Position numbers and translations under genes: made by a program. Below are positions 568-43,099 of a DNA stretch of 53,998 bases, piece by piece. The notes below the pieces were generated by a model, which saw only the letters and a list, made by a program, of their open reading frames with translations, searched no databases and was not told the DNA's origin. Source of the stretch: Escherichia phage vB_EcoM_DE15; the sequence record NC_079184.1. One strand, written 5' to 3'. The stretch's first letter is position 1; the number at the start of each line of letters is the position of its first letter.

Positions 568-588
568 ATATTAGTTGGACGTGAATTG
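568..588 (+). promoter_or_regulatory. Phage promoter-like motif (ATTAGTTGG core) upstream of the RNA polymerase gene
   Basis: Copy of the recurring 20-nt motif ACATTAGTTGGAT(A/T)TGAA; here ATATTAGTTGGACGTGAATTG. Confidence 0.4.
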
Positions 589-651
589 TGTAATGGCTAC
601 GCTATTATAATCCGTTTCAGTTAAATCATACACAATCTTGGAGACTTACAA

Positions 652-2592
652 ATGACTACTATCACCACTCAAACTATCAAATCCGTTGTTCCTGCTATCA
701 CTGCTCTGGTATACCGTGCCAAAGAGAAACAGAACTATATGCAGCCTCAGACTTGTGCTATTGCTGCCTTAGCCATCTTCAAGATGATGACGTCTTTCAC
801 TCGTGATGACGTTGTCCCTGCCATCGCGATGGTTGAACTGGCTTCTGCTTCTATTGCTGATGCCAACCGTTATAACAACGATTTGAAAGCAATGCACTAT
901 GTTGACCCAGCTATCAACCTCATTGGTCTGGCTAAGCACTTTGGCTTCATCACCATGAACGAAGACAAGTCATTCCAACAGACTGACACATGGGTTGAAC
1001 TGGTTACAACCAAAGACACCGCAGTGCCATTCACTGAGCGTGTTACATCTGAATCTCGTCGCAAGCCTTTCGTTAAAGGTGGCAAAGTTAAGCCATCCAA
1101 AACTCTGAAAGCTGCAATCGAATTCCTGCAAGATACTGAGTACCATGTGGAGACTGAGATGGTTCGCATCATCCAGTCCATGCTTGAGCAACGTACTTAT
1201 GGTGGCTTGCAGATGCCAGAAGCAATCCAGACTGAACTTCATGTTTGGAACAATGCTGTAGCAATGATGAATCAGGACACACTGTATTCTGACTACTTTG
1301 CTGACAACCGTGGTCGCCTGTATCATGTAGCATGTGCTGGTCCTAACCCACAATCTTCTGACTTTGCTCGTTGCTTGTATTCTCACAATGTTGAGAACAT
1401 CGTTAAGAAGTTTAACGAAGATGGTTCTACTACCATTGCATACAATATGTTCATGGCAGAACTGGAAGACATTTCCGGTGGTGAATGGTGCACTGCCAAG
1501 CGTTTGACTTATGTTGCTCAGAATCCAGCTGGTTCACTTGCTCGCATGATGAACATGCCTAAAGCTGAACGTCCTTCCAAGCCATTCACTTATGTTCGTC
1601 TGGCTCTGGATTGGTTCAAGTTTGAGACTACAGGTGAATGCGATTCTCGTGTAGGCTTTGGCTTAGATGCTAAATGTTCTGGTACTCAATATCTGGCATT
1701 CATTGCTGGCAATATGGAAATGGCTCGTGCAACAGGTCTGGTTGATTCTGAGACTAAAGCATCTGACCCATACCAGTTGAGTCTTCGTGAACTGTTGAAG
1801 CTGTTGGACAAGTCTTCAATGAAACCATCTCCTGAAATCATGGATGAATTCTTGAATCCGAAAGCTGGTCGTAAGTTTATCAAAACTCCGTACATGGCTA
1901 TTCAATATGGTGGTGGTAAAGCTGCACTAACTGGTTCATCTGACTTCATCAGCTACATGACGGAAGCTCTCCAGATTCCTATGGAGAAAGCTGAGGCATT
2001 TGCTGAACTGTGTGTAGAAGCAATCCATAACGCATTGGGTGCTAAGATTAACATGTTCATTGAGAAAGCTGCTGAGGCTGCATACAACCGTTGTGTTGAA
2101 CTCAACAAAGAGTACATCACATATCGTCACACTGATGGTCAGGTTGTAATGAAGCCTTGCTTCCCATCTCGTGAAATCTGTGAGGCATTCAGCATTCGTG
2201 TTGACAGCCAAACTCGTGTTATCTTTGGTCAGATTCAGGAGAATAAGCCTTGGACCATTCGTGAATCCAACCCAACTAAAGAAGAATTCAAGCGTACTTT
2301 CGTTGTTAACTACATTCAAGGTATTGACGCATTGGTTGCTCGTACTGTTGCAGTTAAAGCTAAAGAAGCTGGTCTTCGTGGTTTCACTTCAATCCACGAT
2401 TGTTTCCGTTGCTGTTTGGCAGATGCTCCACGTATGATGGAAGTTATTCGTGCAGCATATGTTGAAATCTTTGTAACCAACAATCAATTCGAGAATCTGT
2501 CTAAGCAACTTGGTGGCATTCAGATGTATCATGAGAACATCGTAACTGAAGAACTCCTGATGTCTGAACACGCTTACTACTTCTGTCAATAA
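652..2592 (+). CDS. Single-subunit (T7-type) DNA-dependent RNA polymerase, compact 646-aa form
   Basis: Motif A GLDAKCSGTQY (T7 DGSCSGIQH), motif B RKFIKTPYMAIQYGG (T7 RxxxKxxxxxxYG), motif C IHDCF (T7 HDSFG); only ~130 aa precede the palm region. Confidence 0.8.
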   Translation: MTTITTQTIKSVVPAITALVYRAKEKQNYMQPQTCAIAALAIFKMMTSFTRDDVVPAIAMVELASASIADANRYNNDLKAMHYVDPAINLIGLAKHFGFITMNEDKSFQQTDTWVELVTTKDTAVPFTERVTSESRRKPFVKGGKVKPSKTLKAAIEFLQDTEYHVETEMVRIIQSMLEQRTYGGLQMPEAIQTELHVWNNAVAMMNQDTLYSDYFADNRGRLYHVACAGPNPQSSDFARCLYSHNVENIVKKFNEDGSTTIAYNMFMAELEDISGGEWCTAKRLTYVAQNPAGSLARMMNMPKAERPSKPFTYVRLALDWFKFETTGECDSRVGFGLDAKCSGTQYLAFIAGNMEMARATGLVDSETKASDPYQLSLRELLKLLDKSSMKPSPEIMDEFLNPKAGRKFIKTPYMAIQYGGGKAALTGSSDFISYMTEALQIPMEKAEAFAELCVEAIHNALGAKINMFIEKAAEAAYNRCVELNKEYITYRHTDGQVVMKPCFPSREICEAFSIRVDSQTRVIFGQIQENKPWTIRESNPTKEEFKRTFVVNYIQGIDALVARTVAVKAKEAGLRGFTSIHDCFRCCLADAPRMMEVIRAAYVEIFVTNNQFENLSKQLGGIQMYHENIVTEELLMSEHAYYFCQ

Positions 2593-2600
2593 GAGAAACA

Positions 2601-2630
2601 GGGCTGGCAATAGCTGGCCCTATTCTTGTT
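2601..2630 (+). terminator. Hairpin (8-bp stem incl. 2 GU, AATA loop) followed by T-rich run after the RNAP gene
   Basis: GGGCTGGC-AATA-GCTGGCCC then TATTCTTGTT. Confidence 0.4.
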
Positions 2631-2693
2631 CATCAACAACTAAATCCCAATATTCAAGCAATATTGCTGCATGTAATATTGCTCCGATATTCG

Positions 2694-2714
2694 ACATTAG
2701 TTGGATATGAAGTA
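2694..2714 (+). promoter_or_regulatory. Phage promoter-like motif ACATTAGTTGGATATGAAG
   Basis: Member of recurring 20-nt motif family. Confidence 0.4.
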
Positions 2715-3670
2715 AAAGAATACGGAGAAATATTCCGCATGTCATGTTGAATCATTCTAGAAACATTCAGCATGTCAGCTTTGAGTTACAGCGTTGTAAT
2801 GATGTGGCAATCATTGAACTCCCTGGGAAGGCCACCTATAGTTCCAGCAACCATGACTTAGAGTAGGAATATCTATCCGAAACTTGGACTTCATTGTAGT
2901 TTGGTGTGCTTCATCGTGAGAAAGGTTGTGATAACTTTCGTAAGCAGGTGTTGAACTAACAACAGAACATCGTGTTAGCCATCTTGATTAAGTTACAAGA
3001 AAGTCAACAAATCAGCATGTCTATTAGTAACAATCTTGTTCCTTCTCCTATTATCAAGGCCCACCCACAAGCCGGGAGATAACTTTGACAAGACTGGAAC
3101 TTTTGGACATGCTTCTTTCTTTCTACAAGAATTCGAAAGAAGAGAAGAGTCGGAGCAAAGCCGCGAAACTAATCCCGTAGCCCGCCCCCGATTTTGAGCA
3201 ACAAATATTGTGACAATTGCGTCGCAGTATGGCATGTAAATATTGCTACAAATTGGCATGTTGGAATGTGGCAGAATTGTTAGAGGACTAATCACCTCGA
3301 AGATACAATCGTCTACCAATCTGGCATGTTAATTTTGTAACAGTATTTGTGCCAATTTCGCATGTAATAGTTGTATCAGTATTGACCCAATATTCTTGCA
3401 ACCCGCATGAATACTGGCTTCCAGCCAAGCGAAGGCTTTATCATCGCATGTAATATTGTGACAATATTGGGATAAAACCCTTTATTTAAATCATTTAGTT
3501 TATTAATTAAATGGTCGGTTTTCTGTACATAGGTATTCAACTGTTTGTGCCAAATACAAACAAGTTGGCTGCTTCTACAGAACTCCAGTGCTACAAATGT
3601 TCGTGCCAATCTGCTGCAATTTATCTCATTTGGCGGGGTAATATTGTATTAGGTTGGTACGTCATTATTT

Positions 3671-3692
3671 CGATTAGTTGCATGTGAATAAG
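3671..3692 (+). promoter_or_regulatory. Phage promoter-like motif variant GATTAGTTGCATGTGAATAAG
   Basis: Member of recurring motif family, one core substitution. Confidence 0.3.
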
Positions 3693-3964
3693 ACCAAATC
3701 TCTGTAAATTCTGTGACAGATTTTAGAGAGATTATGTCTCCAAGCTAATCATTGTAGTTCTTCGGCACTTAATGTGTCACATATATAGCCTGTGAAAAAC
3801 GTGTGGTTTATTGCTGGATTGCAACGCGCCCACCAGACTAGGGAGTCCGTGATGGCGGCACACAGGAATACTATATAACTCCCTACAACTTTAAGGTGGA
3901 TTGAGGTAAGACAAGACCTCCACAATCGTTCTGTAGGGAGTTTTCTTTAACTTGGGAGAATAAA

Positions 3965-4213
3965 ATGGATACTGTGACTAAAGCTGCTTACTTTAAAGAC
4001 TTGTCAGATGGTCAAATATTTTCTATTCGCTCTGTAAAGTGGATTAAAGTAAATGAATCAGACAAGTACAATGCTGTAAAGTTCTTTGATTCAAGCAAGG
4101 CATGTACTTTTAGTGACAATATTGTTGTAAATATTGAAGTCGAATTAGAGCCAGATGATTCAAATGATGAAATCATTCTGCGTAAAACTGTTGGATACAC
4201 TAAAGGATTCTGA
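3965..4213 (+). CDS. Hypothetical early protein (82 aa)
   Basis: ORF with GGGAG RBS upstream of ATG. Confidence 0.5.
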   Translation: MDTVTKAAYFKDLSDGQIFSIRSVKWIKVNESDKYNAVKFFDSSKACTFSDNIVVNIEVELEPDDSNDEIILRKTVGYTKGF

Positions 4214-4214
4214 A

Positions 4215-4445
4215 ATGGATTATGCACTGTATCACTATATAAGCAGGACTGGGCTTGTTCGTCACGCTTTGGTCAACATTAAAACCAAAGACATACTGTT
4301 GGCTGGCTTGTCAATTTACGAAAACAATTTAGTATGGAAACGTGCTGTACATCCTGGACATGTTTGGGATGTAATTCAGTCTGACAAATACCACAAAATT
4401 GTTGCAATGGCTAACCGACCAGAGCACATCAAGCCGAGGAAATAA
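4215..4445 (+). CDS. Hypothetical early protein (76 aa; ORF track gives 4155 start)
   Basis: ATG at 4215 directly after upstream stop; tight gene packing. Confidence 0.4.
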   Translation: MDYALYHYISRTGLVRHALVNIKTKDILLAGLSIYENNLVWKRAVHPGHVWDVIQSDKYHKIVAMANRPEHIKPRK

Positions 4446-4447
4446 TC

Positions 4448-4636
4448 ATGGACTTCATCGTCTACTTTAAGTTAAATGGTGTAGAGCAAAGTTTGTACTT
4501 CAATTCTTTACTTCGTTTGCAACAGTGGGCGGAGAAGTTTGTTGGTTACGACTTTGATTACATCAATGCATGTACAACTGACGAACATGAGGAAATCGTG
4601 TTCAGTTCTTTAAATCAAATTCTGGAGGCCAAGTGA
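4448..4636 (+). CDS. Hypothetical early protein (62 aa)
   Basis: ORF, ATG start, packed with neighbours. Confidence 0.45.
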   Translation: MDFIVYFKLNGVEQSLYFNSLLRLQQWAEKFVGYDFDYINACTTDEHEEIVFSSLNQILEAK

Positions 4637-4824
4637 AGAGCAAGATTCTTAAGTCAGCAATGTATAATCTGCATTTCGGACTCAGCTACCCTACAGTAAA
4701 GCGTCAAGAGAAACGATTTTCACGACTACCTGCACGGACTGTTGCCAAAGAGGTTAAGAAGGCGAGCGAGATTCTAAAGTTCGTTATGTGGAAACGTGTT
4801 GTATTAACTCCGGAGACCAAATGA
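4633..4824 (+). CDS. Hypothetical early protein (63 aa, GTG start)
   Basis: ORF in track; start uncertain. Confidence 0.35.
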   Translation: MKSKILKSAMYNLHFGLSYPTVKRQEKRFSRLPARTVAKEVKKASEILKFVMWKRVVLTPETK

Positions 4825-5087
4825 GCCAGTTTAAGTTAAAAGCAGATTTAATCGAGTTGGCCTCTTATGAAGAGAAAATCGAATTCATCCAAGAACGTTT
4901 GGTTGTCAACTACGGTGGTTGGATTGATGTTTCTACAAATGAGTTGGTGGTTCGTATCAAGGAAGAGTTTGGTATTGAAATCACTAACAAACAGTTTTAT
5001 GAAGATGTTCTCACAGATAAAGTTATTCGAGGCATCACAAACAATTTCATGTCCAGCTTTATGGAAGGTGGGCCACGTTTAAAATGA
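4821..5087 (+). CDS. Hypothetical early protein (88 aa; ORF track gives 4788 start)
   Basis: ATG 4821 in frame of ORF 4788..5087. Confidence 0.4.
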   Translation: MSQFKLKADLIELASYEEKIEFIQERLVVNYGGWIDVSTNELVVRIKEEFGIEITNKQFYEDVLTDKVIRGITNNFMSSFMEGGPRLK

Positions 5088-5248
5088 AGAAGCTCAAATA
5101 TATGACCAAAACGGTTACATATATGGCTATGTATGGTGCTTCAAAGCGTAAGGCTAAGAAATTGGCAAGAGCTGCAAATCCTCGTATGCCAGCACGTAAA
5201 GTGGCCAAAATCGTTAATCTGGTATTTGGCAATTGGAGTATTAAGTGA
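5084..5248 (+). CDS. Small basic protein (54 aa)
   Basis: ATGA overlap with upstream stop; translation MKKLKYMTKTVTYMAMYGASKRKAKKLARAANPRMPARKVAKIVNLVFGNWSIK. Confidence 0.3.
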   Translation: MKKLKYMTKTVTYMAMYGASKRKAKKLARAANPRMPARKVAKIVNLVFGNWSIK

Positions 5249-5427
5249 ATTATGAGAATCTGCTATTAAGAACTAGTGGTGGGATGCTCATACTGACCAC
5301 ACCTGAGTTTCATTTCACAAGGGTATACTCCGAAGAATTTAAATCCTGGTTCCCAGCAAATCTAAAAACACGATGGCTTAAAGATTGTGTGCCTGTTGGG
5401 AAGAATGTAAAGCTAAGGAGTAAATAA
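5245..5427 (+). CDS. Hypothetical protein (60 aa, GTG start)
   Basis: ORF in track only. Confidence 0.25.
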   Translation: MNYENLLLRTSGGMLILTTPEFHFTRVYSEEFKSWFPANLKTRWLKDCVPVGKNVKLRSK

Positions 5428-5600
5428 TGAACGACCAGCAATTCAACACATTCATGCAGCAAATTAATCATCAAGAACTGATGGATGCCATTAAAGGCAA
5501 GAAGCCAGTCGAACGTCAATATCGTAAAATTGATAATTATATGCCAACAATCATTGCATGTGTTGGTGTTGCTATTGTTCTCTACTTCCTGGTGAAATAA
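5427..5600 (+). CDS. Small protein with C-terminal transmembrane segment (57 aa)
   Basis: AAGGAG RBS 5415-5420; hydrophobic C-terminus TIIACVGVAIVLYFLV. Confidence 0.4.
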   Translation: MNDQQFNTFMQQINHQELMDAIKGKKPVERQYRKIDNYMPTIIACVGVAIVLYFLVK

Positions 5601-5686
5601 TGTCGATTGCTAAGAAACTGTTATTCTGTATCGTAATGTTCCCTATGGTGCTGCTCGTTGTGGGCAGCTTCATGTACTTAAACTAA
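5600..5686 (+). CDS. Very small membrane peptide (28 aa)
   Basis: TAATG overlap; MSIAKKLLFCIVMFPMVLLVVGSFMYLN. Confidence 0.3.
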   Translation: MSIAKKLLFCIVMFPMVLLVVGSFMYLN

Positions 5687-5695
5687 GGTAATTAA

Positions 5696-6004
5696 ATGGC
5701 TTCTTTACTCGAATTCTCAAATATTGCAAATGTTGCTAAGAATTCTATTCCGGAAAATCCGGACGTAATTGCGTACATGCGTGTTGATGTAAGTTTGTTA
5801 GCTTTTGTAATGGACCACATCAACCTTGTTGAAGCGCAGTTATCTCAGTCTTACGAAACAGTTGACACTCTTCGTGGACTTCGTACAGCAGAGCAACAGG
5901 CTTATGCTGACCTCATGGAGCAAAAGAACAAGCTCCAAGAACAACTGGCAGACGCACTTCAACAAATTGAAGACATGAAGCCACCAGCAGAATCAACCAA
6001 ATAA
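5696..6004 (+). CDS. Hypothetical protein with coiled-coil C-terminus (102 aa)
   Basis: ORF with RBS. Confidence 0.5.
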   Translation: MASLLEFSNIANVAKNSIPENPDVIAYMRVDVSLLAFVMDHINLVEAQLSQSYETVDTLRGLRTAEQQAYADLMEQKNKLQEQLADALQQIEDMKPPAESTK

Positions 6005-6022
6005 TCAAACTTAGGAGTTGTT

Positions 6023-6283
6023 ATGGCTACCAAAACAGGCATGATGATTGTCCCAAGCCGTAATAACTCTTTAAGCGGCTTTACACCATATAAAATCTAC
6101 GAAGTGATTTCTGGCACTGGTGAAGCAAACCTGTCAGAAGTTGCTTTGAAGTTGGGCCGTATGGTCCACTCCGAAATCTCCTGTAACGTAGTTGATGATG
6201 AAGGTAAAATCCGTTTTGTAACAATGGATTTCTTTCGTGAATTTAACCTCAAATCTGAATTAGGAGTCCTGTATCATGAATGA
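6023..6283 (+). CDS. Hypothetical protein (86 aa)
   Basis: ORF with GGAG RBS. Confidence 0.5.
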   Translation: MATKTGMMIVPSRNNSLSGFTPYKIYEVISGTGEANLSEVALKLGRMVHSEISCNVVDDEGKIRFVTMDFFREFNLKSELGVLYHE

Positions 6284-6464: not shown

Positions 6465-6466
6465 TC

Positions 6467-6921: not shown

Positions 6922-6984
6922 TTTCCTCAACCACTTTTGTAATGAGAGTGGTTGCTGAATATTATTAATTAACTTGGAGCATTT

Positions 6985-7501: not shown

Positions 7502-7785
7502 ACAAGAATTCAATTTTGCGTTATGTTGGTAAAACAAACTACAACTTTACCAACGGTAAGAAATACAAAATCGTCGCAGGTCGTGGTGACGGGGTTCCTC
7601 GCAACAACGGTACACTCGGTGCGTATATTCAATCTCCTTTGGGTTTTGTCGTTAATGATGATAACAGCAATTTATGTTATCGTACATTCTCCGATAATTG
7701 GGAACTTGTGAAAGATTCTGGTGAAGTTAGTTGGTATAAACCTGAATCAACAATCGACCCAATTCCTATTTCAAAATCTATGTGA
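7498..7785 (+). CDS. Hypothetical protein (95 aa)
   Basis: ORF. Confidence 0.45.
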   Translation: MNKNSILRYVGKTNYNFTNGKKYKIVAGRGDGVPRNNGTLGAYIQSPLGFVVNDDNSNLCYRTFSDNWELVKDSGEVSWYKPESTIDPIPISKSM

Positions 7786-7826
7786 TTAACAATGGGCATC
7801 TTCTGTAGGTGTCCATGATTAATCCA

Positions 7827-7848
7827 ACATTAGTTGAATGTGAATAAC
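7827..7848 (+). promoter_or_regulatory. Phage promoter-like motif ACATTAGTTGAATGTGAATAAC
   Basis: Motif family member 18 nt upstream of next gene. Confidence 0.45.
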
Positions 7849-7865
7849 AACTACTGGAGCAGATT

Positions 7866-8306
7866 ATGCCAATCGTATTCGAAGGTAAGGCCAACGTATT
7901 TACTGTGGATGCACAAACTGTAACTTGTACTGTGAATGTTGTTGGTGTAATGGGTGCTGGTGTTGCAAAAGAGTACAAACGTCGCTACCCAGAGGCATTT
8001 AAGAACTACAGAACTGCGTGTAATCGTGGGTTCAAAACTGGACAATTGTTGCTGCAACGTCTTAATGATGGGCGTCTTGGACTATGTTTCCCAACAAAGC
8101 AACATTGGCAAAATCCTTCTCAACTTGAATGGATTGAGCAAGGTCTTATTAAGCTGGTGGAAACTTACAAGCGGTGTGGAATCACTTCACTTGCAATAAC
8201 CCCACTTGGTTGTGCAAATGGGCAGTTGGATTATGCTACTCAAGTTCGTCCACTTATGCTTAAATATTTAAATCAGTTGGATATTCCAGTATTCATCTGC
8301 AAATGA
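7866..8306 (+). CDS. Macro-domain protein (ADP-ribose binding/hydrolase-like)
   Basis: NVVGVMGAGVAKEY resembles the macro N-x(5)-G-G-G-V loop; SLAITPLGCANGQLD resembles the second glycine loop. Confidence 0.55.
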   Translation: MPIVFEGKANVFTVDAQTVTCTVNVVGVMGAGVAKEYKRRYPEAFKNYRTACNRGFKTGQLLLQRLNDGRLGLCFPTKQHWQNPSQLEWIEQGLIKLVETYKRCGITSLAITPLGCANGQLDYATQVRPLMLKYLNQLDIPVFICK

Positions 8307-8342
8307 TTATCAGGGTGCATTTACGAGTGTACCCGAATAATC

Positions 8343-8363
8343 CAATTAGTTGGATTTGAAGAG
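8343..8363 (+). promoter_or_regulatory. Phage promoter-like motif CAATTAGTTGGATTTGAAGAG
   Basis: Motif family member. Confidence 0.45.
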
Positions 8364-8432
8364 ACAAAGCTATTCCGTGGTTAGCAATGTCACTGAAACT
8401 TAAACTGTAATTAACTTAAGAGAATCTTAATC

Positions 8433-8810
8433 ATGGCACAATATTCAGATGTAAACACTGGCATTATCGGTCCTAACGGCTTCAAGAAAGACCCAAAACA
8501 TCCTGACATTCGTGGACGTATTAACGTTGACGGAATCTGGTATTGGGTATCTGGCTGGAATAAGCAAGCAAATGGTAATGAGTTTACCTCACTTGCATTG
8601 ACCATCATGACTCAGGAACAGGTTGATGAAATGATGCGTAAGCGTGAAGAGAAAGCTAAAGCCAAAGCTCAACCTCAAGCCGCTGCACAACAGCAACAGC
8701 AACGTCAGCAACCTTCTGCTGCACAGCAACAGCAAGCTCCTGCTCAACAACAGCAGGGTAATTACAATCCGAACGAGCCGAAAGGCTTCGACGACGACAT
8801 TCCATTCTAA
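8433..8810 (+). CDS. Small protein with Q/A-rich linker and C-terminal DDDIPF (host SSB acidic tip); SSB-like or SSB-tail mimic
   Basis: C-terminus NEPKGFDDDIPF matches the E. coli SSB tail; preceding low-complexity Gln-rich linker. Confidence 0.55.
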   Translation: MAQYSDVNTGIIGPNGFKKDPKHPDIRGRINVDGIWYWVSGWNKQANGNEFTSLALTIMTQEQVDEMMRKREEKAKAKAQPQAAAQQQQQRQQPSAAQQQQAPAQQQQGNYNPNEPKGFDDDIPF

Positions 8811-12274: not shown

Positions 12275-12343
12275 TTCCAGGCGGGTTTCTTCGAAGTGCC
12301 AAGCGGGTTTTGTACTCGCATTGGCCTTCGGCTTTAGTCTGAA

Positions 12344-12364
12344 ACATTAGTGGGATTTGATTCT
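12344..12364 (+). promoter_or_regulatory. Phage promoter-like motif (first of three in tandem)
   Basis: ACATTAGTGGGATTTGATTC. Confidence 0.4.
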
Positions 12365-12494
12365 GACCACTTAGGGAAGAAAGGCATTATACACTTATCG
12401 CCAAATGGGTGTCAAGCACTTTCTTCATTTATTTTAATTTATTCTTATTATTCTTTTTGTTTGGAATATTGGAATAATTCTGAAACATTAATTG

Positions 12495-12516
12495 GAATTG
12501 AATTAGTGTAATTCTG
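12495..12516 (+). promoter_or_regulatory. Phage promoter-like motif (second of three)
   Basis: ACATTAATTGGAATTGAATTAG, preceded by a 70-nt AT-rich tract. Confidence 0.4.
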
Positions 12517-12621
12517 TCTGTACTCTTTTCCACTAGCAATTGTAGAGGAAGTCCACTGCAATAAGCGCAGCCTCAAACAACCAAGTCTGGACAACTTGGG
12601 AAGAGAGTACAGCACAAAATC

Positions 12622-12642
12622 ACATTAGTTTGAATTGAAACA
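12622..12642 (+). promoter_or_regulatory. Phage promoter-like motif (third of three)
   Basis: ACATTAGTTTGAATTGAAAC. Confidence 0.4.
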
Positions 12643-13876: not shown

Positions 13877-14551
13877 ATGTCTTATCATGATGATGACAAA
13901 GAGATTGCACTATCAACGTGTAAGCAATGGCTCAATGATAATGATGCCGTCTATCTTGCCAAGGAAGATGTTATCATTATGTGGGTCCATTTTAATCCAG
14001 AATCGAAGCGCGGTGAGTGGCAACGCTACAAGATGAAAGAGGCTTGTCGCATAATTAAAGCCACACGCGCTGGCTTCTCTGCTATGAAGTATATTAAGCC
14101 AGAGATGCTGATGCTTGCTGCACAGGAAGAAGAACGTGCATATAAGCAAGCTGTTAAATCTCGTTCAACTGTTCCTCCAGAGTTCTTTAATTTGGAGCGC
14201 GCTGGACACTTCAACAATTTAGAAATGTTGACACTGTGCCTGTTGCAAGAATTAGTTGGAAGAGGACAAAACATTGAAGCTGTTTGTCTTGGGGAACTCA
14301 TGAAAGAGTTGTTCTCGGCAAAGGGCTTTGCTGTGCCAAATCGAACTTTACGCTGGAAATTGTTGCGAGCAGTCGCGCAAGAAGCTGGTGTAGTTGTTCG
14401 TGACAGAACAAACCGACTCACTGTAACTGGAGTTGGGCGTTTTGTAGCAATCCAGATTGAGGGTTATGACGAATCAATCATCACTGAACTCACTGTCGCT
14501 GAGACAAAGGATTTAGTAAATAAAACATTAGAACGATTCAATAGATATTGA
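13877..14551 (+). CDS. Hypothetical protein (224 aa; ORF track gives 13820)
   Basis: ATG 13877 immediately after upstream stop. Confidence 0.45.
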   Translation: MSYHDDDKEIALSTCKQWLNDNDAVYLAKEDVIIMWVHFNPESKRGEWQRYKMKEACRIIKATRAGFSAMKYIKPEMLMLAAQEEERAYKQAVKSRSTVPPEFFNLERAGHFNNLEMLTLCLLQELVGRGQNIEAVCLGELMKELFSAKGFAVPNRTLRWKLLRAVAQEAGVVVRDRTNRLTVTGVGRFVAIQIEGYDESIITELTVAETKDLVNKTLERFNRY

Positions 14552-14580
14552 GTCGTTTGTCGAATCAGAGCAGTTCTGAA

Positions 14581-14601
14581 ACATTAGTTGGATGTGGAAA
14601 G
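14581..14601 (+). promoter_or_regulatory. Phage promoter-like motif ACATTAGTTGGATGTGGAAAG
   Basis: Motif family member. Confidence 0.45.
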
Positions 14602-14675: not shown

Positions 14676-15014
14676 ATGGCTAAGATTGTAACCGTAACTC
14701 AGTACGAAGCTAACGATGGTTCCCTGTTCCTGACCGAAGCAGAGTGTAATGCACATGACTTCAAACTGGAAAACGGTGCTAAAATTGAGAAAGCTGCCGA
14801 AGCGTACCTGAACACCGTTGGCGCTATCGACCGTTCTCGCTCCATGCAGAAGAACACCATCGAGCAGTTCCTGGCATTCTACCTGCCGTGGGTTGAAGCT
14901 GGTGAGCCGGAAGTTGAGCGTACTAAGTTCGATACTCCGAAAGAAGCTAAAGTTGCTGACGCAAGTGTTGCCGAAGCTGCCGAAGCTGCTGTTGAAGAAG
15001 CTCCGGTATTCTAA
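14676..15014 (+). CDS. Acidic protein (112 aa) with host-like high-expression codon usage
   Basis: CTG/CCG/CGT-rich codons unlike neighbours; Ala/Glu-rich C-terminus. Confidence 0.5.
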   Translation: MAKIVTVTQYEANDGSLFLTEAECNAHDFKLENGAKIEKAAEAYLNTVGAIDRSRSMQKNTIEQFLAFYLPWVEAGEPEVERTKFDTPKEAKVADASVAEAAEAAVEEAPVF

Positions 15015-16104
15015 GTTGCCGATGGCAAACTTGAGAGACTAAGCTAAATCGATCTGGCATGCACTGGAAGATTTCCGGTGCTGCCTTGAACCCATTCTGA
15101 AAGGAAGAGTGGGCTTCAATGAGCATTCTTGTGATTAGAGTTGGGAGGTAGGCCGATGCCCAAGCTCATGGCCCAGACAAGAGTGTTCATTGAAGTTACT
15201 TCAATATGGATTGTCGCCAAGTTGTGGAAGGACGTGCACACAGATTTAACGAAGAAAAGTAACAGCCTGAGAACTGTGAAAATTTCCCGTTATGTCGTGG
15301 GGAAGTGCACCATAGCTTGGGTTCTTCACGTAGATATTACTCAGATATTTGCGGCTCGCTGAATGTGAGCATCCATATTGAAGTAGTTTTCTGAGTCTTA
15401 CGACGGGCCTAAACTGCCTGAAGTTATTGCGACTGTTTTATTCATTTAAAATAAATGCAAATGATTCTGAAATGCGAGTTGCGGCTTAATTAAATTTAAG
15501 TCCTCTCCGTGGTCTTCCAATCCCACGTAACCAAATTTGGCGCATTGTGGCTTCGAGATGTGATTAATAAATCGGAGCAATAATTAATTTGTATTCTGCG
15601 ATGCAATGCAGGCTTAAGTCCCTCAGTGCGCGTGGGGATGTGACAGAGTACAAACTTAATTATGCAGTTGGATATTTCTAGAGGACGGACGAGCACACTG
15701 GAATGTCTTCAATTGGTTTAGTGTGAGAAGCTATGCCAATATGAAACGTAACTCCTTGGGGAAGTGCTCCTCTGGATTTCCCTCCACACAGGAATCTCAA
15801 GCCTGTGGCAGCGACTTCGAAGCTGCACTGCGTAACCTAAATTCACCCTAAAGTGAGTTGCCCTGAGTATGGAAATAAACTGCTCATAACCGATGGTATC
15901 TACAAAGGTAGATTAAATCAGGTTGCCTGTTGGTACTTGGGTTCAACACCTGCTTGCACTCGCAAAGTAGTGCCTCGTACCTGAGATGAAGTGAGTCGGG
16001 ACCATCAATCCCACGTTATGTCAAAACACAGTAGGCGGCTCACGGATTCTACAAGCCTCGCAGTTCGGGAAAACCTGCGTTATCAAAACCCCCCTCTTTT
16101 ATTT

Positions 16105-16196
16105 GGACGAGTAGCTCAGAAGGTTTGCATTGTGCTCAGTCAGGTAGAGCAATCTGTTCGACAGATGTGTCGTTGGTTCGAATCCAACCTCGTCCA
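16105..16196 (+). tRNA. tRNA-like gene (anticodon loop GUUCGAC, anticodon UCG, Arg) carrying a 20-nt insertion in the D-loop; possibly pseudo-tRNA
   Basis: Acceptor GGACGAG/CTCGTCC, TA at 8-9, D-stem GCTC/GAGC, T-arm GTTGG-TTCGAAT-CCAAC, discriminator A; D-loop 29 nt with duplicated GCTCAG. Confidence 0.4.
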
Positions 16197-16228
16197 CCCA
16201 CTTTAATAATAGCAATACTGGAGTCCTT

Positions 16229-28123: not shown

Positions 28124-28309
28124 ATGCGCACAATACAATGTCCTAACTGCCATTATGAAATTGCAGAAGATGATTTCATAACGCAACAATGTCCTATCTG
28201 TGATTCATATATGCCACTAAACCGCCTGTATTTAAAGGCCGATTCTGGTTTAGGCAGCATCATTCGCATCAATCCCGTGCAAACTCAGCCATTAGTGGAT
28301 TGTGATTAA
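28124..28309 (+). CDS. Small zinc-ribbon protein
   Basis: CPNCHYEI...CPICDSYMP. Confidence 0.4.
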   Translation: MRTIQCPNCHYEIAEDDFITQQCPICDSYMPLNRLYLKADSGLGSIIRINPVQTQPLVDCD

Positions 28310-35058: not shown

Positions 35059-35078
35059 ATAACTTAAGAGAAATAGTA

Positions 35079-38226: not shown

Positions 38227-38236
38227 GGTGCGATAA

Positions 38237-38692
38237 GTGAAACAATATTCTTTCTATAATACCGACCTCATTATCGACGGTGCTCGTGTAGATGGTTTTA
38301 CCTCTGGTAATTCCATCATCACTGCTCGTCGTAACGCACCTCAACACCTGCCTGTTATTGACGCGTATGGTAAGTTGGCTGTAGCTACTACGGCTGACTT
38401 ATCTGGTACTATTACTTTCCCGCTTCTGCAAACCGCAGACTGGAACGAAATCTTGTACAGCCGTGCTCAGTTAACTCAGGCAACTGGTCTGTCTGGCAAC
38501 AAATCTCTGTGGCAACCGCTCCAGATTCAGATTGTTGACAAGATGGGTGATGTGCTGGTCAATGGTGTAAACGGCGCTATCTTGCAGCAACCTGCAATTC
38601 AGCGTGGTGTGTCCTTCACGTCTAACGTGTGGTCTATCTTTGTAGAGCGCCTCCAGATTAAGACTGGTTCTTATCCGGAAATTGGCGTTTAA
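38237..38692 (+). CDS. Tail tube protein (putative)
   Basis: 151 aa, position. Confidence 0.45.
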   Translation: MKQYSFYNTDLIIDGARVDGFTSGNSIITARRNAPQHLPVIDAYGKLAVATTADLSGTITFPLLQTADWNEILYSRAQLTQATGLSGNKSLWQPLQIQIVDKMGDVLVNGVNGAILQQPAIQRGVSFTSNVWSIFVERLQIKTGSYPEIGV

Positions 38693-38703
38693 TTGGAGTA
38701 AGT

Positions 38704-39162
38704 ATGGCTTGTGAATTGCTTCAACGTGAATTCACAAACTCCAAAGGCGAAACAGTGTTAGTCGTTGTTCGACAATTGTCGGCTTCGGCTGCACTGTCTC
38801 TTCACGCGGAGTTGGTAAGCAAGTTAGGCTCACGAGTATTCCCATTCATCGAAGGTAAATATAACTTCGCTGATATTATATACTTGATGCAGCAAGTAGA
38901 GCATACCGTATTCACAGAATTGTTTAAGCGTGTTATCAGCATGCACTCGTCCATAGATGGACAAGAAATCAAACCTGCATTATATGATATGCAGTTCAAT
39001 GGCGAATTGATGTTGTCTTGCCATGTCTTTGCTTTCGTGCTCGAAGCAAACTTCCTTGATTTTTTCAAGCAAGGGCTCGAAATCAACGAACAGAGACGAT
39101 TGGAGGCGGAGGAAGCATCCAAGCTGGCAGAGCAGAAGAATTCGAGTCCGGAGACAGTTTAG
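38704..39162 (+). CDS. Tail assembly chaperone (G-like)
   Basis: Acidic C-terminus; TTTTTTC slippery site at 39060; position before tape measure. Confidence 0.55.
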   Translation: MACELLQREFTNSKGETVLVVVRQLSASAALSLHAELVSKLGSRVFPFIEGKYNFADIIYLMQQVEHTVFTELFKRVISMHSSIDGQEIKPALYDMQFNGELMLSCHVFAFVLEANFLDFFKQGLEINEQRRLEAEEASKLAEQKNSSPETV

Positions 39163-39338
39163 TATCCCTGTTCCCCGACATAAAATATTTTCTGCATCGT
39201 CCTATAATCGAAGATAGTTCTCTCTGCAAGTTACGTGAATTGCAAGATGGAACCTATTCGATTATGGACTTATTGCTATTCCACGACATTCTCGATTTGC
39301 GTAAGAAACTCGAACCAGTAGATGAAGACAATGGCTAA
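39060..39338 (+). CDS. -1 frameshift extension of tail assembly chaperone (GT-like product)
   Basis: -1 frame opens exactly at the slippery heptamer (stop TGA 39057-39059) and runs 92 codons to 39338. Confidence 0.5.
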   Translation, partial: FFQARARNQRTETIGGGGSIQAGRAEEFESGDSLVSLFPDIKYFLHRPIIEDSSLCKLRELQDGTYSIMDLLLFHDILDLRKKLEPVDEDNG

Positions 39339-42300
39339 TCAAAAAGATTTAATGAAGTTGAGCGTTAATGAGTTAATTGCATTAGGCTCTCAAAGCGGTC
39401 TGACTTTCCATGCTGGTATGAAGAAGTCGCACATGGTTCAACAACTTAGTGCGAGCGCTGCTTCGGGATGGCTGGATACAAATGCAGAATTAATGGGTGG
39501 GTCGTTCGAAGATGACAGTTTGATTACTGAATCTTTGGGTGACTCTTCCATGATTTCAGACGCTGCCCACATTGCACAAGTGCTTTCAAGTGCTGGCTAC
39601 ACAGAAGCATTTCATGCAGCAATGAATGGCCCATCACACCATGTAGAAGCTGTTCACGCATACATGGAAAGGCTTGGCGTTAGCACAGATGATGTGTGGA
39701 TGCACATGCCAAAGCCAAATCCGAACCTACCGCAAGGTAGCTTCAACATGCTTAATGCCTATATGCGAGATACTTTGCAAGGGCATCAAGATATTATGCC
39801 GGAAATCCCAGGCCATTATGCTGGGGATATTATGGCTGAATACTCCACCAACCGTGGAAACATTGCTGACTCCTACAACTACATGGCCCACATGTATGTT
39901 GACCGTGAGCAATATAGCAATCATGAACAATACGCAAGAGACATTAGTCGAGTTGCCAAACGTCTGGAACGAGAGTTACCCTCAGCCTTTAAGGAAGTTG
40001 GGTATACATCCGCATCTAATGTAGGAAATAAATCGGCCCCACATATTTCTTACATGGATGCACTCCCTCAGATTGGTTCTCCTTCGATTGTTTCTGGCAT
40101 TGCACATCCTCGTGCACCTCTTAACGCATCTGGACTTCCTCTTGGTTCTTATGGTTCTGGCATAAATCCAGAATACTCCCTCACTGCCTCGCTAACTGGT
40201 GGCACTGGTTGGAGTGAACCAAGCAAGGCTTTATATTCCTCTATTAGCGAAGCTGTTAAATCTGCTGCCAAAGTTTATTCTGGTTCCAAAGGGATGATGA
40301 ATACTCGTCACGAAGTATCTGACCGTGACATGATTATGGACAGTGCAACTCGCTACACAGATTTGGAAGAAGCCAGAAGCGGATACGAAAACCTTCGTTC
40401 TGAACTTGCAGATGAACCAGCTTATTCTGCATCAAGTGTTCGAGCTATTCTCGAAAACACTTACGATAGAATGGATGCCGAACCTGTTCGCATTCCAAAG
40501 ATGAAGGGAGCTTCACAGCGAGTCGATAAAGATTCACTGTCAACATCTACAGATTTTACAGCACAACTTGGAGAGGCCACCAATTGGAACTCTGCAAGAA
40601 TGCGTCGTGAGGAACTTGCGATTGCAAATATGGATAGTGCTGGATTCCGTGATGTATCAGACTATGGTACAGGACGTTCCGAGTCCCCCGTCCGATTCCA
40701 TGACTTAGAACAGGGCAGCCAAGAGTGGCTGGACTTCCGTAAAAATTATGACATAACTGGCTCAACTGTTGGAACTTTCTTAGGAAACAACCCATACACC
40801 CGACCTTGGGCTGGTATGATTGATAAGATTGGCTTATCTCGTAGTAAAGAGCACAGCGATTTCACCAAAAAGATGTTCGCTGATGGTCACAGGACGGAAG
40901 AAGAAGCACGCGCTCGTGTTGGTAAGGAATTTGGATTCGATATCAAACAAATTGGCGCTATAACAAATGACAACTATCCCGCCTTCATGTATTCTCCTGA
41001 TGGTCTTATTGGGGATGATGCCATTTGGGAGCACAAGAATCCGCAAAGGGCTGGTAAGTTTGCTGACCTTCTTAAAGGCGACCATCCAGACTACATGGAC
41101 CAAATTCAATTTGGTATGCACGTTTCTGGCCGTTCTCGTGCTTTGTTCTCACAAACCATCAACGACGAAACACGTTCGCAGTGGATTGAGAAGGACGAAG
41201 GATGGTACGAAAGAAACCGAAATCGCCTTGATTCTGTGCTTGGCCGTCTTGATGCTGGGCGAGAGTTTGTTAGAAACAATGCTGGATTAGAACGAGAAGA
41301 GCTGATTGCTGGTGCAAGAAGTGCAATGACTGGTGATGGAATCTGGAAAGATATTCGTCAAAGGTCTACTCGTGGCTATTCTGCTGCTGCTGGTACTCCA
41401 GAAGACCCGTTTATTGGTTCACGTTCTTCGTACAATCCAGAAGCATCCTACTCTGACTACAAGCCAAACTTTGTAATGCACGAGCAAAACTTTCCGGCAA
41501 CTACTGGAAATGGTGACACCGGAAATGACTCGATGGCATTGTCTGTTAAGAAAGGTATTCTTGCTGCTCAGGAAGAAAACAGGCAGAAAGGTATTGGTGC
41601 AGATGCAGACTTTGATGGCAAAGCCGATTCAATGGGCTGGAACCGTGAAAGATTTGATGCTGCCAATGGCGGTGGATATTCTGGCGGTGGTGGTGGTCGT
41701 GGCGGCAACTTCACAAGTGGTGGCAACTACTATGATGACTACGGTCGCATGGGTGGTTCGTTAGCTGCTGGCATTGCTGGTGGCAGTATTGGTTCAGCAA
41801 CCAACGGAGTTATGCAAGCATTGATGGCAACTCCTGCTGGACGTATGGCTGCTGTAGGCATTGGTGCTATTCAGATTGGCAATGAAGCTGCTGAATACAT
41901 GAATGACTTTATCGGCAACTCGCTTGATGCTGGTGTGATAAATCCTAATGAATATTCTTCCATGTCGCAAGGCTTGGAGATGTTAGGACTCAACTCACAA
42001 CAAGCGGCACGTCTGAATCAAACCACACATAGTGCCTATAACACCATGCTTAACGGCGACCCCAGCGCCGCTGTGAACATCGTTCGCGGCAGTAGGGGAT
42101 TGCTCACCATAGGTGATATTCGTGCGACAGGCGGCGACCCTGTGGCCCTGGCTCGCATCATGCAGGAAAGGGGCAAGGAGCGTGGCTGGAGTCAGGCCCG
42201 TATCGCAGGTGCTGCCGAAATGGCTGGCCTACAGGGTATGGCGCGAGCATACGACCGCACGGAATACAGCCATGAGCAAGCTGGCTCGGTGGTAGAAGCG

Positions 42301-43047
42301 GGTAGAAACTCCGACTTTGCCGAAGGTATGGCCCAATCGGAAATGTTGCAGGGAAGCCGCGCACGGATGCTGCCGAGCTACAACGTGCCACAAAGTGTCC
42401 TATCTAATGGCGCTTCTGTATTTGAGGCTGGCAGTGATGCACTTGACAGTGTACGCACTGGATTCAACAGGACACGAGAGTTTGCTGGAAGTGTTTACGA
42501 CTTTATTGCTCAGGAAGAATCTGGCGGTCGTGAATACAACAAAGATGGTTCTCGTGTAACAAGTCCAACTGGCGCTCGTGGGATAATGCAGATTCTCCCT
42601 TCGACTGCCCGTGACCCAGGATTTGGAATCAGGCCGTCTGATGGAACTCCAGAAGATGATGCACGAGTTGGTCGTGAATACTATGACGCAATGTACAAGC
42701 GTTATGGCGACCACGAGAAAGCAATGGCTGCTTACACCGATGGTCCTGGCACTGTTGACAAAGCTGTTGATAAGAATGGGTTGGATTGGCTTACTGCTGT
42801 TCCTGCACAGGCACAGAATCGCGTCAAAGCATTCCGTGAATGGTCCAAGTCTTCTCAATCTTTGGAAGAAGGTGCTACAGGGTTTACTCGTAATGGAATG
42901 TCATACGGTCAAACCCAAACTGTTGTTAATGTTAAGATTGATGCTAAGGTCAACAACCAGACTGCTTCTGCTACAGTTGCAATTCCTGGTGGTCAGACTG
43001 TGACTCAACAAATGAACATGAACAACGGTGCGCAACAAAGACGTTAA
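39322..43047 (+). CDS. Tape measure protein (1241 aa) with internal YqaJ-like PD-(D/E)xK nuclease domain and C-terminal lytic transglycosylase (SLT) domain
   Basis: QGSQEWLDFRKNYDITGSTVGTFLG and YSPDGLIGDDAIWEHKNP (YqaJ-like); EESGGREY...GARGIMQILPSTA (SLT); Gly-rich hydrophobic stretch. Confidence 0.65.
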   Translation: MKTMANQKDLMKLSVNELIALGSQSGLTFHAGMKKSHMVQQLSASAASGWLDTNAELMGGSFEDDSLITESLGDSSMISDAAHIAQVLSSAGYTEAFHAAMNGPSHHVEAVHAYMERLGVSTDDVWMHMPKPNPNLPQGSFNMLNAYMRDTLQGHQDIMPEIPGHYAGDIMAEYSTNRGNIADSYNYMAHMYVDREQYSNHEQYARDISRVAKRLERELPSAFKEVGYTSASNVGNKSAPHISYMDALPQIGSPSIVSGIAHPRAPLNASGLPLGSYGSGINPEYSLTASLTGGTGWSEPSKALYSSISEAVKSAAKVYSGSKGMMNTRHEVSDRDMIMDSATRYTDLEEARSGYENLRSELADEPAYSASSVRAILENTYDRMDAEPVRIPKMKGASQRVDKDSLSTSTDFTAQLGEATNWNSARMRREELAIANMDSAGFRDVSDYGTGRSESPVRFHDLEQGSQEWLDFRKNYDITGSTVGTFLGNNPYTRPWAGMIDKIGLSRSKEHSDFTKKMFADGHRTEEEARARVGKEFGFDIKQIGAITNDNYPAFMYSPDGLIGDDAIWEHKNPQRAGKFADLLKGDHPDYMDQIQFGMHVSGRSRALFSQTINDETRSQWIEKDEGWYERNRNRLDSVLGRLDAGREFVRNNAGLEREELIAGARSAMTGDGIWKDIRQRSTRGYSAAAGTPEDPFIGSRSSYNPEASYSDYKPNFVMHEQNFPATTGNGDTGNDSMALSVKKGILAAQEENRQKGIGADADFDGKADSMGWNRERFDAANGGGYSGGGGGRGGNFTSGGNYYDDYGRMGGSLAAGIAGGSIGSATNGVMQALMATPAGRMAAVGIGAIQIGNEAAEYMNDFIGNSLDAGVINPNEYSSMSQGLEMLGLNSQQAARLNQTTHSAYNTMLNGDPSAAVNIVRGSRGLLTIGDIRATGGDPVALARIMQERGKERGWSQARIAGAAEMAGLQGMARAYDRTEYSHEQAGSVVEAGRNSDFAEGMAQSEMLQGSRARMLPSYNVPQSVLSNGASVFEAGSDALDSVRTGFNRTREFAGSVYDFIAQEESGGREYNKDGSRVTSPTGARGIMQILPSTARDPGFGIRPSDGTPEDDARVGREYYDAMYKRYGDHEKAMAAYTDGPGTVDKAVDKNGLDWLTAVPAQAQNRVKAFREWSKSSQSLEEGATGFTRNGMSYGQTQTVVNVKIDAKVNNQTASATVAIPGGQTVTQQMNMNNGAQQRR

Positions 43048-43052
43048 TGAGT

Positions 43053-43068
43053 TGGGGAGAAATCCCCA
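43053..43068 (+). terminator. Hairpin TGGGGA-GAAA-TCCCCA after tape measure gene
   Basis: Read from sequence. Confidence 0.4.
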
Positions 43069-43078
43069 GCTTACTTTA

Positions 43079-43099
43079 ACATTAGTTGAATATGTATTA
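43079..43099 (+). promoter_or_regulatory. Phage promoter-like motif ACATTAGTTGAATATGTATT upstream of baseplate genes
   Basis: Motif family member. Confidence 0.45.

Follow-up and report, generated by a model that had tools for sequence, protein, structure and literature searches.

The closest described systems are the phiEcoM-GJ1-like coliphages, in whose public records the motif considered here is already annotated. The record of phiEcoM-GJ1 (hereafter GJ1), EF460875, lists it as 'putative phage promoter 1-9', and that of SA91KD, NC_079183, carries the feature 'promoter similar to promoter of phiEcoM-GJ1', adjoining terminator hairpins. The motif has therefore stood as a putative phage promoter in records of close relatives since 2008, and its prediction is already known. 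The GJ1 feature tables that hold the putative promoters cite Jamalludeen et al., 2008 (Appl Environ Microbiol 74:516). The 2022 ICTV profile describes chasevirus promoters as 'not yet identified', and the literature searched yielded no 5'-end mapping of transcripts, no rifampicin-resistant transcription and no transcription in vitro for a chasevirus; a multi-omics paper based on ONT-cappable-seq was discarded as chasevirus evidence, its subject being a Listeria phage.

Here we analyse a 53,998-nt stretch of DNA (the window; Escherichia phage vB_EcoM_DE15, NC_079184.1) from a phiEcoM-GJ1-like coliphage (Chaseviridae, Carltongylesvirus) that is approximately 95% identical to ST32 and SA91KD. The window contributes one more member to the group and some comparative evidence rather than a discovery. 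Minor additions are (i) a conserved, unannotated site before the polymerase gene, and (ii) a conserved, perfect antisense sigma-70 promoter within a cluster of three motif copies.

The 20-mers annotated in GJ1 (nnACATTAGTTGGATGTGAA) have the same sequence, strand and syntenic positions as the window sites, seven of which correspond to GJ1 promoters 1, 2, 3, 4, 5, 7 and 9 (Table 1). Flanks are identical or near-identical to GJ1 at seven sites, and SA91KD has promoter features annotated at the corresponding places. When a weight matrix built from the window was applied to GJ1, seven of the nine annotated sites scored 22.6-30.2 bits, promoter 8 scored 19.0 bits, and promoter 6 fell under the 13-bit listing threshold. 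Two copies in the window, at 12485 and at 7827 (where a macro-domain gene is inserted), are extra relative to GJ1. A search of the window for an equivalent of GJ1 promoter 8 found none, and the counterpart of the intragenic promoter 6 reaches only 11.9 bits. The copy before the polymerase gene (568 in the window, 571 in GJ1) is unannotated in both EF460875 and NC_079183.

Table 1. Motif copies, neighbouring hairpins and the polymerase gene in the window, with the corresponding GJ1 'putative phage promoter' where there is one.
Feature	Position	Strand	GJ1 promoter	Remarks
Motif copy ATATTAGTTGGACGTGAA	568..585	+		24.0 bits; ends 66 nt upstream of RNA polymerase start codon
Single-subunit RNA polymerase gene, 646 aa	652..2592	+		PF00940; presumed reader of the motif
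G+C-rich hairpin with T-rich tail, terminator-like	2600..2621	+		Directly after polymerase stop codon
Hairpin	2649-2691			Ends 2 nt upstream of 2694 copy
Motif copy ACATTAGTTGGATATGAA	2694..2711	+	1	27.9 bits
Motif copy CGATTAGTTGCATGTGAA	3671..3688	+	2 (TCATTAGTTGCATGTGAA)	Within long non-coding stretch ahead of early small-gene block
Two-tier hairpin	7784..7824	+		Ends 2 nt upstream of 7827 copy; -17.9 kcal/mol
Motif copy ACATTAGTTGAATGTGAA	7827..7844	+		21 nt before macro-domain gene 7866-8306
Second copy of two-tier module	8305-8342	+		Abuts 8343 copy; -17.2 kcal/mol
Motif copy CAATTAGTTGGATTTGAA	8343..8360	+	3	Precedes ORF 8433-8810; downstream flank shared with GJ1 promoter 3 (ahead of annotated SSB gene)
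Strong hairpin	12292-12330			-22 kcal/mol; 13 nt upstream of 12344 copy
Motif copy ACATTAGTGGGATTTGAT	12344..12361	+	4	First of non-coding triple cluster
Motif copy ACATTAATTGGAATTGAA	12485..12502	+		Second of cluster; after ~65-nt AT-rich tract 12416-12484
Motif copy ACATTAGTTTGAATTGAA	12622..12639	+	5	Third of cluster; downstream flank equals that of GJ1 promoter
Hairpin	14531-14558			Upstream of 14581 copy
Motif copy ACATTAGTTGGATGTGGA	14581..14598	+	7	77 nt before gene 14676-15014
Weak, degenerate motif-like candidate CCATTAGTGGATTGTGAT	28289..28306	+		15.0 bits; before large terminase gene
Hairpin, GGGGA-GAAA-TCCCC core	43048..43073	+		Between tape-measure-like gene and 43079 motif
Motif copy ACATTAGTTGAATATGTA	43079..43096	+	9	23 nt before baseplate-hub gene 43120-44229

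An 18-nt motif family on one strand

A mismatch search, a weight matrix and a de novo scan agree that the ten-site, + strand motif family is real. Across the whole window, ACATTAGTTGGATWTGAA is matched at ≤3 mismatches nine times, always on the + strand, against 0.09 matches expected, and none of 100 shuffled windows reached nine. The tenth site, 3671 (CGATTAGTTGCATGTGAA), has four mismatches to ACATTAGTTGGATWTGAA, yet scores 22.5 bits by position weight matrix, and 16.5 bits when excluded from the matrix. The genome-wide matrix scan that the first-pass annotation had proposed as a check sets the ten sites apart at 22.5-27.9 bits; the runners-up score 15.0 (28289), 14.1 (13813) and 11.9 bits (14249), and nothing comparable occurs on the - strand, where the top score is 10.2 bits. 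The value at 28289 falls within reach of random sequence; that candidate is conserved in GJ1 and takes a variant form in 4HA13. In an independent de novo lag scan (14-mers, ≤2 mismatches), the highest-ranking family apart from codon repeats consisted of just these ten sites, and no other over-represented intergenic motif emerged in the window.

The element is one contiguous block with sharp edges and the consensus aCATTAGTTG(G/A)A(T/A)(G/T)TGAA, in which T4, T5, A6, G10 and G16 are invariant; over the ten sites, information is confined to 18 positions and falls sharply on both sides, so that the length of 20 nt given in the first-pass annotation is not borne out. The consensus offered there is exact at 2694 only, the other sites differing from it at two to four positions, and the copy placed at 12495 in fact occupies 12485-12502. 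Its description of the sites as intergenic holds for all ten by the curated annotation of GJ1 and SA91KD, as does that of copies ahead of the RNA polymerase gene (568) and the baseplate-hub gene (43079). When the ORFs of the window were mapped crudely, six of the ten sites proved free of any ORF overlap and the remaining four overlapped only short TTG/ATG/GTG-start ORFs that are unannotated in the relatives.

Since the motif includes TTGGAT/TTGAAT, which resembles a -35 hexamer, and since the polymerase gene requires a host-type promoter and has the 568 copy upstream of it, the sites might be promoters of the host RNA polymerase, either redirected by a phage factor in the manner of T4 middle promoters and their MotA box or of a non-canonical sigma-70 type. 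However, neither the ten sites nor a set of 49 sites from six genomes showed a second conserved block, -10 or -35 at a fixed distance, the 49 lack -10-like conservation downstream at every spacing, and matches of a sigma-70 consensus scan never coincide with a motif copy; on these grounds a sigma-70 reading of the motif was rejected. In addition, reading through the relatives' annotation brought no sigma-like or MotA-like gene to notice, and recognition by the host enzyme would leave the phage's own polymerase without a promoter. We consider host promoters the most improbable account of the family. Sigma-70-like sites are rarer in the window than in shuffles (27 vs 42.4, sd 6.3; 20 vs 31.1, sd 5.3), a scarcity that fits reliance on a phage enzyme.

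Conservation, drift and flanking hairpins

The motif is found at 6-8 + strand sites each in Erwinia Y2, Pectobacterium PP101, Proteus Myduc and E. coli 4HA13, where 0.2-0.3 would be expected per genome, and is conserved at syntenic intergenic positions across five genera as an island of identity within otherwise diverged spacers. The copy ahead of the polymerase gene is also present in GJ1 (571), PP101 (355), Myduc (172), 4HA13 (122) and L130 (2134); the 14581 copy is syntenic in Y2, PP101, Myduc and 4HA13, and the 43079 copy in five other genomes. An exact-pattern scan of IMG/VR with CATTAGTTGGANNTGA gave, among the matches listed, mostly single chance occurrences.

Among the few independent lineages available, conservation of the motif appears to follow that of the polymerase: relatives whose polymerase is ≥66% identical keep the motif, those at 44-55% carry drifted forms and those at ≤41% lack it. 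It reads nnnTTAGTTGG..TTGAA at 55% identity, GCATTAGTAGGATTTGAA at 52% and CATTAGTTG...ATGGA at 44%. The motif was not found in Aeromonas pAh6-C, in which de novo search gave only one tentative, hairpin-like candidate, and the same search gave nothing convincing as a replacement motif in L131 and L132, whose polymerases are 40-41% identical. Because loss and drift are seen without a replacement motif, the argument from co-evolution is one-sided.

This drift bears on the idea that the sites are operators bound by a phage-encoded repressor, activator or nucleoid-type regulator, or are bound by replication or packaging proteins. Such an idea draws on the three copies lying within 300 bp in a non-coding, AT-rich, origin-like region, and on the many early genes that have no assigned function. 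It is made very unlikely by the asymmetry of the sites, which are neither palindromes nor direct-repeat dimers, by their strict co-orientation with transcription, by the single copies that precede gene blocks 21-80 nt ahead of a start codon (7827, 8343, 14581 and 43079), and by the way in which motif drift tracks polymerase divergence.

Six of the ten copies follow an unusually stable hairpin at a distance of 0-22 nt, and at six of the ten the folding energy of the upstream 50 nt is in the top 3% of the genome. The SA91KD equivalent of the 2600-2621 hairpin is annotated as a rho-independent terminator (2610-2647). The two-tier hairpins comprise an AT-rich outer stem, an internal loop and a G+C inner stem, with compensatory changes in 6 of 16 pairs of the consensus fold across genera. 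The 43048-43073 hairpin recurs at the same place with a different sequence in Y2, PP101, Myduc and 4HA13, with four of its eight predicted pairs changed on both sides across relatives.

RNase III sites lie between T7 genes, and the two-tier hairpin with its internal loop presumably resembles RNase III substrates such as the T7 R-sites. The motif could accordingly act at the RNA level, as a processing or stability site in read-through transcripts (e.g. cleavage by a host or phage endoribonuclease beside a hairpin) rather than in initiation, a reading to which its restriction to the transcribed strand, its position just past stable hairpins and the covariation of their stems across genera also lend themselves; because every gene is on the + strand, a DNA signal and an RNA-level one would show the same strand bias. 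Against this, approximately 26 bits over 18 contiguous positions far exceeds known endoribonuclease sites and is typical of single-subunit polymerase promoters, the motif shifts as the polymerase diverges, and the 2694 copy is situated past a terminator, where read-through RNA should be scarce. The phage polymerase, moreover, needs some promoter, and no other intergenic motif is over-represented. We regard an RNA-level role as very unlikely.

The polymerase and a proposed transcription programme

The presumed reader of the motif is, by sequence and structural model, a true T7-type enzyme. The 646-aa protein matches PF00940 (E 1.2e-18), its motif A (DxxCSGxQ) and motif C (HDxF) regions can be aligned with those of T7, and its AlphaFold model (pLDDT 91.8) has T7 RNA polymerase as the top Foldseek match in the PDB (E 1.9e-19). 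Identity to T7 RNA polymerase is only ~14%, and the alignment places residue 205 at T7 residue 408, which leaves an N-terminal part ~200 aa shorter. By position, a beta-hairpin region at residues ~505-540 corresponds to the T7 specificity loop; it is kept where the motif is kept and altered where the motif is altered, an anecdotal association from a handful of lineages.

We favour, with a probability of roughly 0.85, the prediction that the 18-nt element is the promoter recognised by this enzyme. The analysis shows a conserved family of sites, a T7-type fold for the polymerase and a motif that drifts with it; binding, start site and temporal programme, as set out below, we infer. Recognition by the phage polymerase was also the reading of the first-pass annotation, is the best supported of those considered, and agrees with the annotation in EF460875 and NC_079183, function being predicted.

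Under a cognate-promoter reading, the polymerase gene would first be transcribed by host RNA polymerase from a sigma-70-type promoter near 359-388, and this transcript would stop at hairpin 2600-2621. The newly made phage enzyme could then initiate at the motif copies, the one at 2694 being the first downstream of the polymerase gene and its terminator-like hairpin. The nine copies between 0.5 and 14.6 kb would drive small early/middle genes, the SSB block and DNA-metabolism genes, and that at 568 may let the enzyme reinforce its own synthesis. The 43.1 kb copy may boost the baseplate and tail-fibre block, and the intervening 28 kb would probably be read through from 14581. At most copies, a hairpin (terminator or processing site) followed by a promoter may mark the boundary of a transcription unit. 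The +1 position is most likely the invariant G at motif position 16 (…T|GAA…), in which case the element spans -15 to +3 and, as in T7, is AT-rich from -4 to -1. In the late region (23-54 kb), 43079 is the sole strong copy, with no such copy immediately ahead of the major capsid or terminase genes; transcription there would require very long read-through or a further late signal that has escaped recognition.

If verified, the motif would define the transcription units of the whole family Chaseviridae, and the T7-type polymerase, unusually small at 646 aa, could together with its 18-bp promoter provide an orthogonal expression system.

Comparison with the T7 origin and T7-type promoters

The T7 primary origin of replication consists of the tandem promoters phi1.1A and phi1.1B followed by an AT-rich tract, and we take the cluster at 12344-12639, with its three tandem copies in non-coding DNA and an AT-rich tract between the first two, to resemble it. 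The cluster also contains a perfect sigma-70 promoter on the - strand, such as the T7 origin is not known to have; this promoter is exact in six of seven other genomes or contigs checked, the seventh, Erwinia Y2, keeping the -10 word. A 41-aa - strand ORF (12347-12222) after this promoter was dismissed, since its ATG is merely the reverse complement of CAT in the motif. The conserved non-coding module at 12.29-12.64 kb (terminator hairpin, three tandem phage promoters, AT-rich tract and antisense sigma-70 promoter) might be a chasevirus replication origin activated by convergent host and phage transcription, a suggestion that we regard as tentative and rather doubtful. Were it true, the 646-aa enzyme and its 18-bp promoter would constitute a minimal T7-type transcription and replication-priming system.

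Compared with the T7, T3 and SP6 promoters of the Autographiviridae, the window motif has no sequence similarity to any of the three consensus sequences, most of its copies fall within the first 15 kb and a single strong one is late, the polymerase gene itself has a copy ahead of it, and the virion is that of a myovirus. In its organisation, however, the window agrees with these systems in several respects, including: (i) a single conserved block of ~18-23 bp, (ii) more information than site-finding requires, (iii) multiple co-oriented intergenic copies together with a T7-fold polymerase encoded early in the genome, and (iv) as in T7 systems, a first copy placed after the terminator that closes the host-transcribed polymerase gene.

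The motif family and its local setting

The first 20 kb of the window are ~95% identical to vB_EcoM_SA91KD and ST32 across 84-89% of that stretch and 90% identical to phiEcoM-GJ1 (GJ1), and gene orientation is + strand throughout. The first-pass annotation had described a promoter-like motif at ten + strand sites, and a mismatch search, a weight matrix and a de novo scan agree that this recurring family is real. The proposed consensus, allowing ≤3 mismatches, recovered nine + strand matches against 0.09 expected by chance, a count reached in none of 100 shuffles; site 3671 carries four mismatches yet belongs to the family, scoring 22.5 bits, or 16.5 bits when it is itself excluded from the matrix. 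In the genome-wide matrix scan the ten sites stand apart at 22.5-27.9 bits, with weak candidates at 28289, 13813 and 14249 as runners-up (15.0, 14.1 and 11.9 bits) and a top - strand score of 10.2, and a motif-blind scan returned the same ten positions as the largest family other than codon repeats. One copy placed at 12495 actually lies at 12485, and the conserved block is 18 nt long rather than 20; its edges are abrupt, and the 25 nt before and 45 nt after the window sites hold no further conserved block. The description of the copies as always intergenic agrees with the curated annotation of close relatives, in which all ten fall in intergenic spacers; in a crude ORF map of the window, four overlap short unannotated ORFs only.

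The 50 nt upstream of the motif rank among the genome's most stable 3% by folding energy for six of the ten copies, and the mean over the ten (-14.0 versus -8.5 kcal/mol) was unreached by any resampled mean of ten. Hairpin and motif are separated by 0-6 nt at 568, 2694, 7827, 8343 and 43079, and the stems covary between genera, with both sides changed in 6 of 16 pairs of the SSB-block promoter hairpin and in 4 of 8 pairs of the hub promoter hairpin. Because these upstream hairpins are stable, adjoining and covarying, the units are hairpin-then-promoter modules, matching the SA91KD record, where hairpins just upstream of promoters are labelled rho-independent terminators. Sigma-70-like matches are rarer in the window than in shuffled sequence, and none in the window scan coincides with a motif copy.

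Coordinates of features in the window and in related phages and contigs
Feature	Position	Detail
Sigma-70-type promoter	near 359-388	9/12 match; annotated in GJ1
Motif copy before polymerase gene	568	counterparts: GJ1 571, PP101 355, Myduc 172, 4HA13 122, L130 2134
Conserved block ATGGCTACGCTA	592-612	followed by TATAAT at 606-611
Polymerase gene	652-2592	first long ORF
Terminator-like hairpin	2600-2621	directly 3' of polymerase gene; next motif copy 2694
GGCATGT(A/T)AATATTG-like words	~2669, 3231, 3323, 3359, 3446	plus related inverted repeats
Two hairpin-plus-promoter modules	7784-8360	near-duplicates flanking macro-domain gene
Macro-domain gene	7866-8306	PF01661, E 1.5e-8
Antisense sigma-70 consensus	12386-12415	- strand, between motif copies 12344 and 12485
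AT-rich tract	12416-12484	adjoins antisense consensus
tRNA-Leu (CAG) call	16104-16200	97 nt
Repeats in distant relative L128	11949-12962	seven copies of TTAATATTGTGACA
Repeats in distant relative L130	4771-5905	TCTGGCATGTCAAT
pAh6-C repeat	23744, 24501, 25088, 28889	downstream of polymerase gene
Integrase-contig and homologue loci	L128 18330-19304; L130 151-1035	proteins P0074, P0079, P0107, P0115

Conservation of the motif and its predicted reader

Four phages representing four more genera (Erwinia phage Y2, Pectobacterium phage PP101, Proteus phage Myduc and E. coli phage 4HA13), whose polymerases are 66-77% identical to that of the window, each carry 6-8 + strand motif sites at ≤3 mismatches, against 0.2-0.3 expected. 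Syntenic sites follow the polymerase gene and precede the SSB gene, a gp34/35-like gene and the baseplate hub, and in alignments of otherwise diverged spacers the motif forms an island of identity. The 49 sites from six genomes yield the consensus aCATTAGTTG(G/A)A(T/A)(G/T)TGAA, in which T4, T5, A6 and G16 never vary and T8 and G10 rarely do; no conserved -10-like element was found downstream of these sites.

As the polymerase diverges the motif drifts, to GAGTTAGTTGGAATTGAA in a contig with a 55%-identity polymerase, to tandem copies of GCATTAGTAGGATTTGAA at 52% and to CATTAGTTG...ATGGA at 44%, and no match was found in contigs with 40-41%-identity polymerases or in Aeromonas phage pAh6-C (polymerase of 843 aa, 35% identity). 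A beta-hairpin region of the polymerase (residues ~505-540), in the position expected for the T7 specificity loop, reads SIRVDSQTRVIFGQ in motif-keeping genomes and is altered in lineages with an altered motif; this parallel change is suggestive of a link between the two, though not a statistical test of one.

We consider the motif to be the predicted promoter of the phage polymerase, with a probability of about 0.85. An RNA-level processing signal beside the hairpins, a DNA site bound by a regulator or replication protein, and a promoter to which a phage factor redirects host polymerase are each very improbable, because of the motif's length, asymmetry and high information content, its lack of a -10 element and its drift with polymerase divergence, and because the polymerase would otherwise have no candidate promoter. 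Under the phage-polymerase reading, host polymerase would make the phage enzyme from the sigma-70-type promoter ahead of its gene, and the enzyme, once made, would initiate at the motif copies. For the start site our best guess is the invariant G16, with AA after it, given the lack of conservation beyond the motif. Nine copies lie within the first 15 kb and one at the baseplate block, leaving 28 kb (14581 to 43079) with no strong copy. Expression of the replication, packaging, head and tail genes would rely on read-through or on weak sites, one example being 28289, kept in GJ1 and 4HA13.

Further observations concern the more distant relatives. pAh6-C carries a GGCTC-TTC-GAGCC-(A/C)AAAG repeat, with a 5-bp stem and 3-nt loop, tentatively a candidate promoter or terminator signal of the other chasevirus subfamily. 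Polymerase homologues of 35-55% identity occur on phage-like contigs bearing Phage_integrase genes, and others in bacterial chromosomes or large contigs of Hafnia alvei (4.8 Mb), Lelliottia wanjuensis, Pseudomonas brenneri (6.3 Mb) and P. laurylsulfatiphila; these contexts hint that a family described as strictly lytic has temperate or integrated relatives.

The antisense sigma-70 consensus and the region around the polymerase gene

The most interesting remaining lead is a conserved promoter within the 12.3-12.6 kb motif cluster, a perfect TTGACA-N18-TATAAT consensus (12/12) directed leftward, opposite to all genes. It is the sole 12/12 match in the window, against 0.05 expected. The exact consensus, with GC after the -10, is kept on the - strand at the syntenic non-coding spot in GJ1, SA91KD, PP101, Myduc, 4HA13 and contig L129, with divergent spacer and flanks; in Y2 the spot retains GTATAATGC. 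No annotation of it appears in the relatives' records examined. It may belong to a replication origin or act as an antisense or roadblock element.

The motif copy upstream of the polymerase gene, whose counterparts extend to a relative with a 44%-identity polymerase (L130), suggests positive feedback. The nearby block ATGGCTACGCTA, possibly a component of the polymerase gene's host-type promoter or leader, also occurs in GJ1, PP101, Myduc and 4HA13; it follows the motif in Carltongylesvirus and 4HA13 and precedes it in PP101 and Myduc. Repeated words (window 2640-3480) lie in the ~1.3-kb sparsely coding stretch after that gene, and similar ones fill the same region in distant relatives. Since the 3.1-3.2 kb direct terminal repeat of Myduc and 4HA13 ends in this region, the words may be linked to genome ends or packaging.

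Comparison with annotated relatives and T7 RNA polymerase

GenBank EF460875 (GJ1) already lists nine 'putative phage promoter' features, with 20-mers of nnACATTAGTTGGATGTGAA and variants; seven window sites share flanks with GJ1 promoters 1, 2, 3, 4, 5, 7 and 9. The RefSeq record of SA91KD, the nearest relative, marks the same places as 'promoter, similar to promoter of phiEcoM-GJ1 (Jamalludeen et al. 2008)'. The earlier phage-RNAP promoter reading is thus sound and rediscovers a published, database-annotated prediction. A literature search turned up neither mapped transcripts nor in vitro transcription from this phage group, and the motif's promoter status is therefore a long-standing prediction. 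What goes beyond public annotation is copy 568 (unannotated in EF460875 and NC_079183), copy 12485, which brings its cluster to three, and the macro-domain module. Where one module precedes the SSB gene in GJ1 and SA91KD, the window has an extra module and the macro-domain gene, which looks like an accessory cassette inserted along with its own promoter module. The tRNA-Leu call of the window is long for a tRNA; in what would be the corresponding stretch after promoter 7, the GJ1 record gives a 95-nt tRNA-Arg that 'may contain an intron'.

The 646-aa polymerase matches Pfam RNA_pol (PF00940, E 1.2e-18) and is barely related to T7 RNAP by sequence (E 0.003), with catalytic motifs A (LDAKCSGTQY / FDGSCSGIQH in T7) and C (HDCF / HDSF) aligning. 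Its AlphaFold model, built with 60 homologues, is confident (pLDDT 91.8, pTM 0.85), and in the PDB it most resembles T7 RNAP complexes (E 1.9e-19, probability 1.00, ~14% identity), with mitochondrial RNA polymerases next. Residue 205 aligns opposite T7 residue 408, and the N-terminal part is therefore ~200 aa shorter than that of T7 RNAP.
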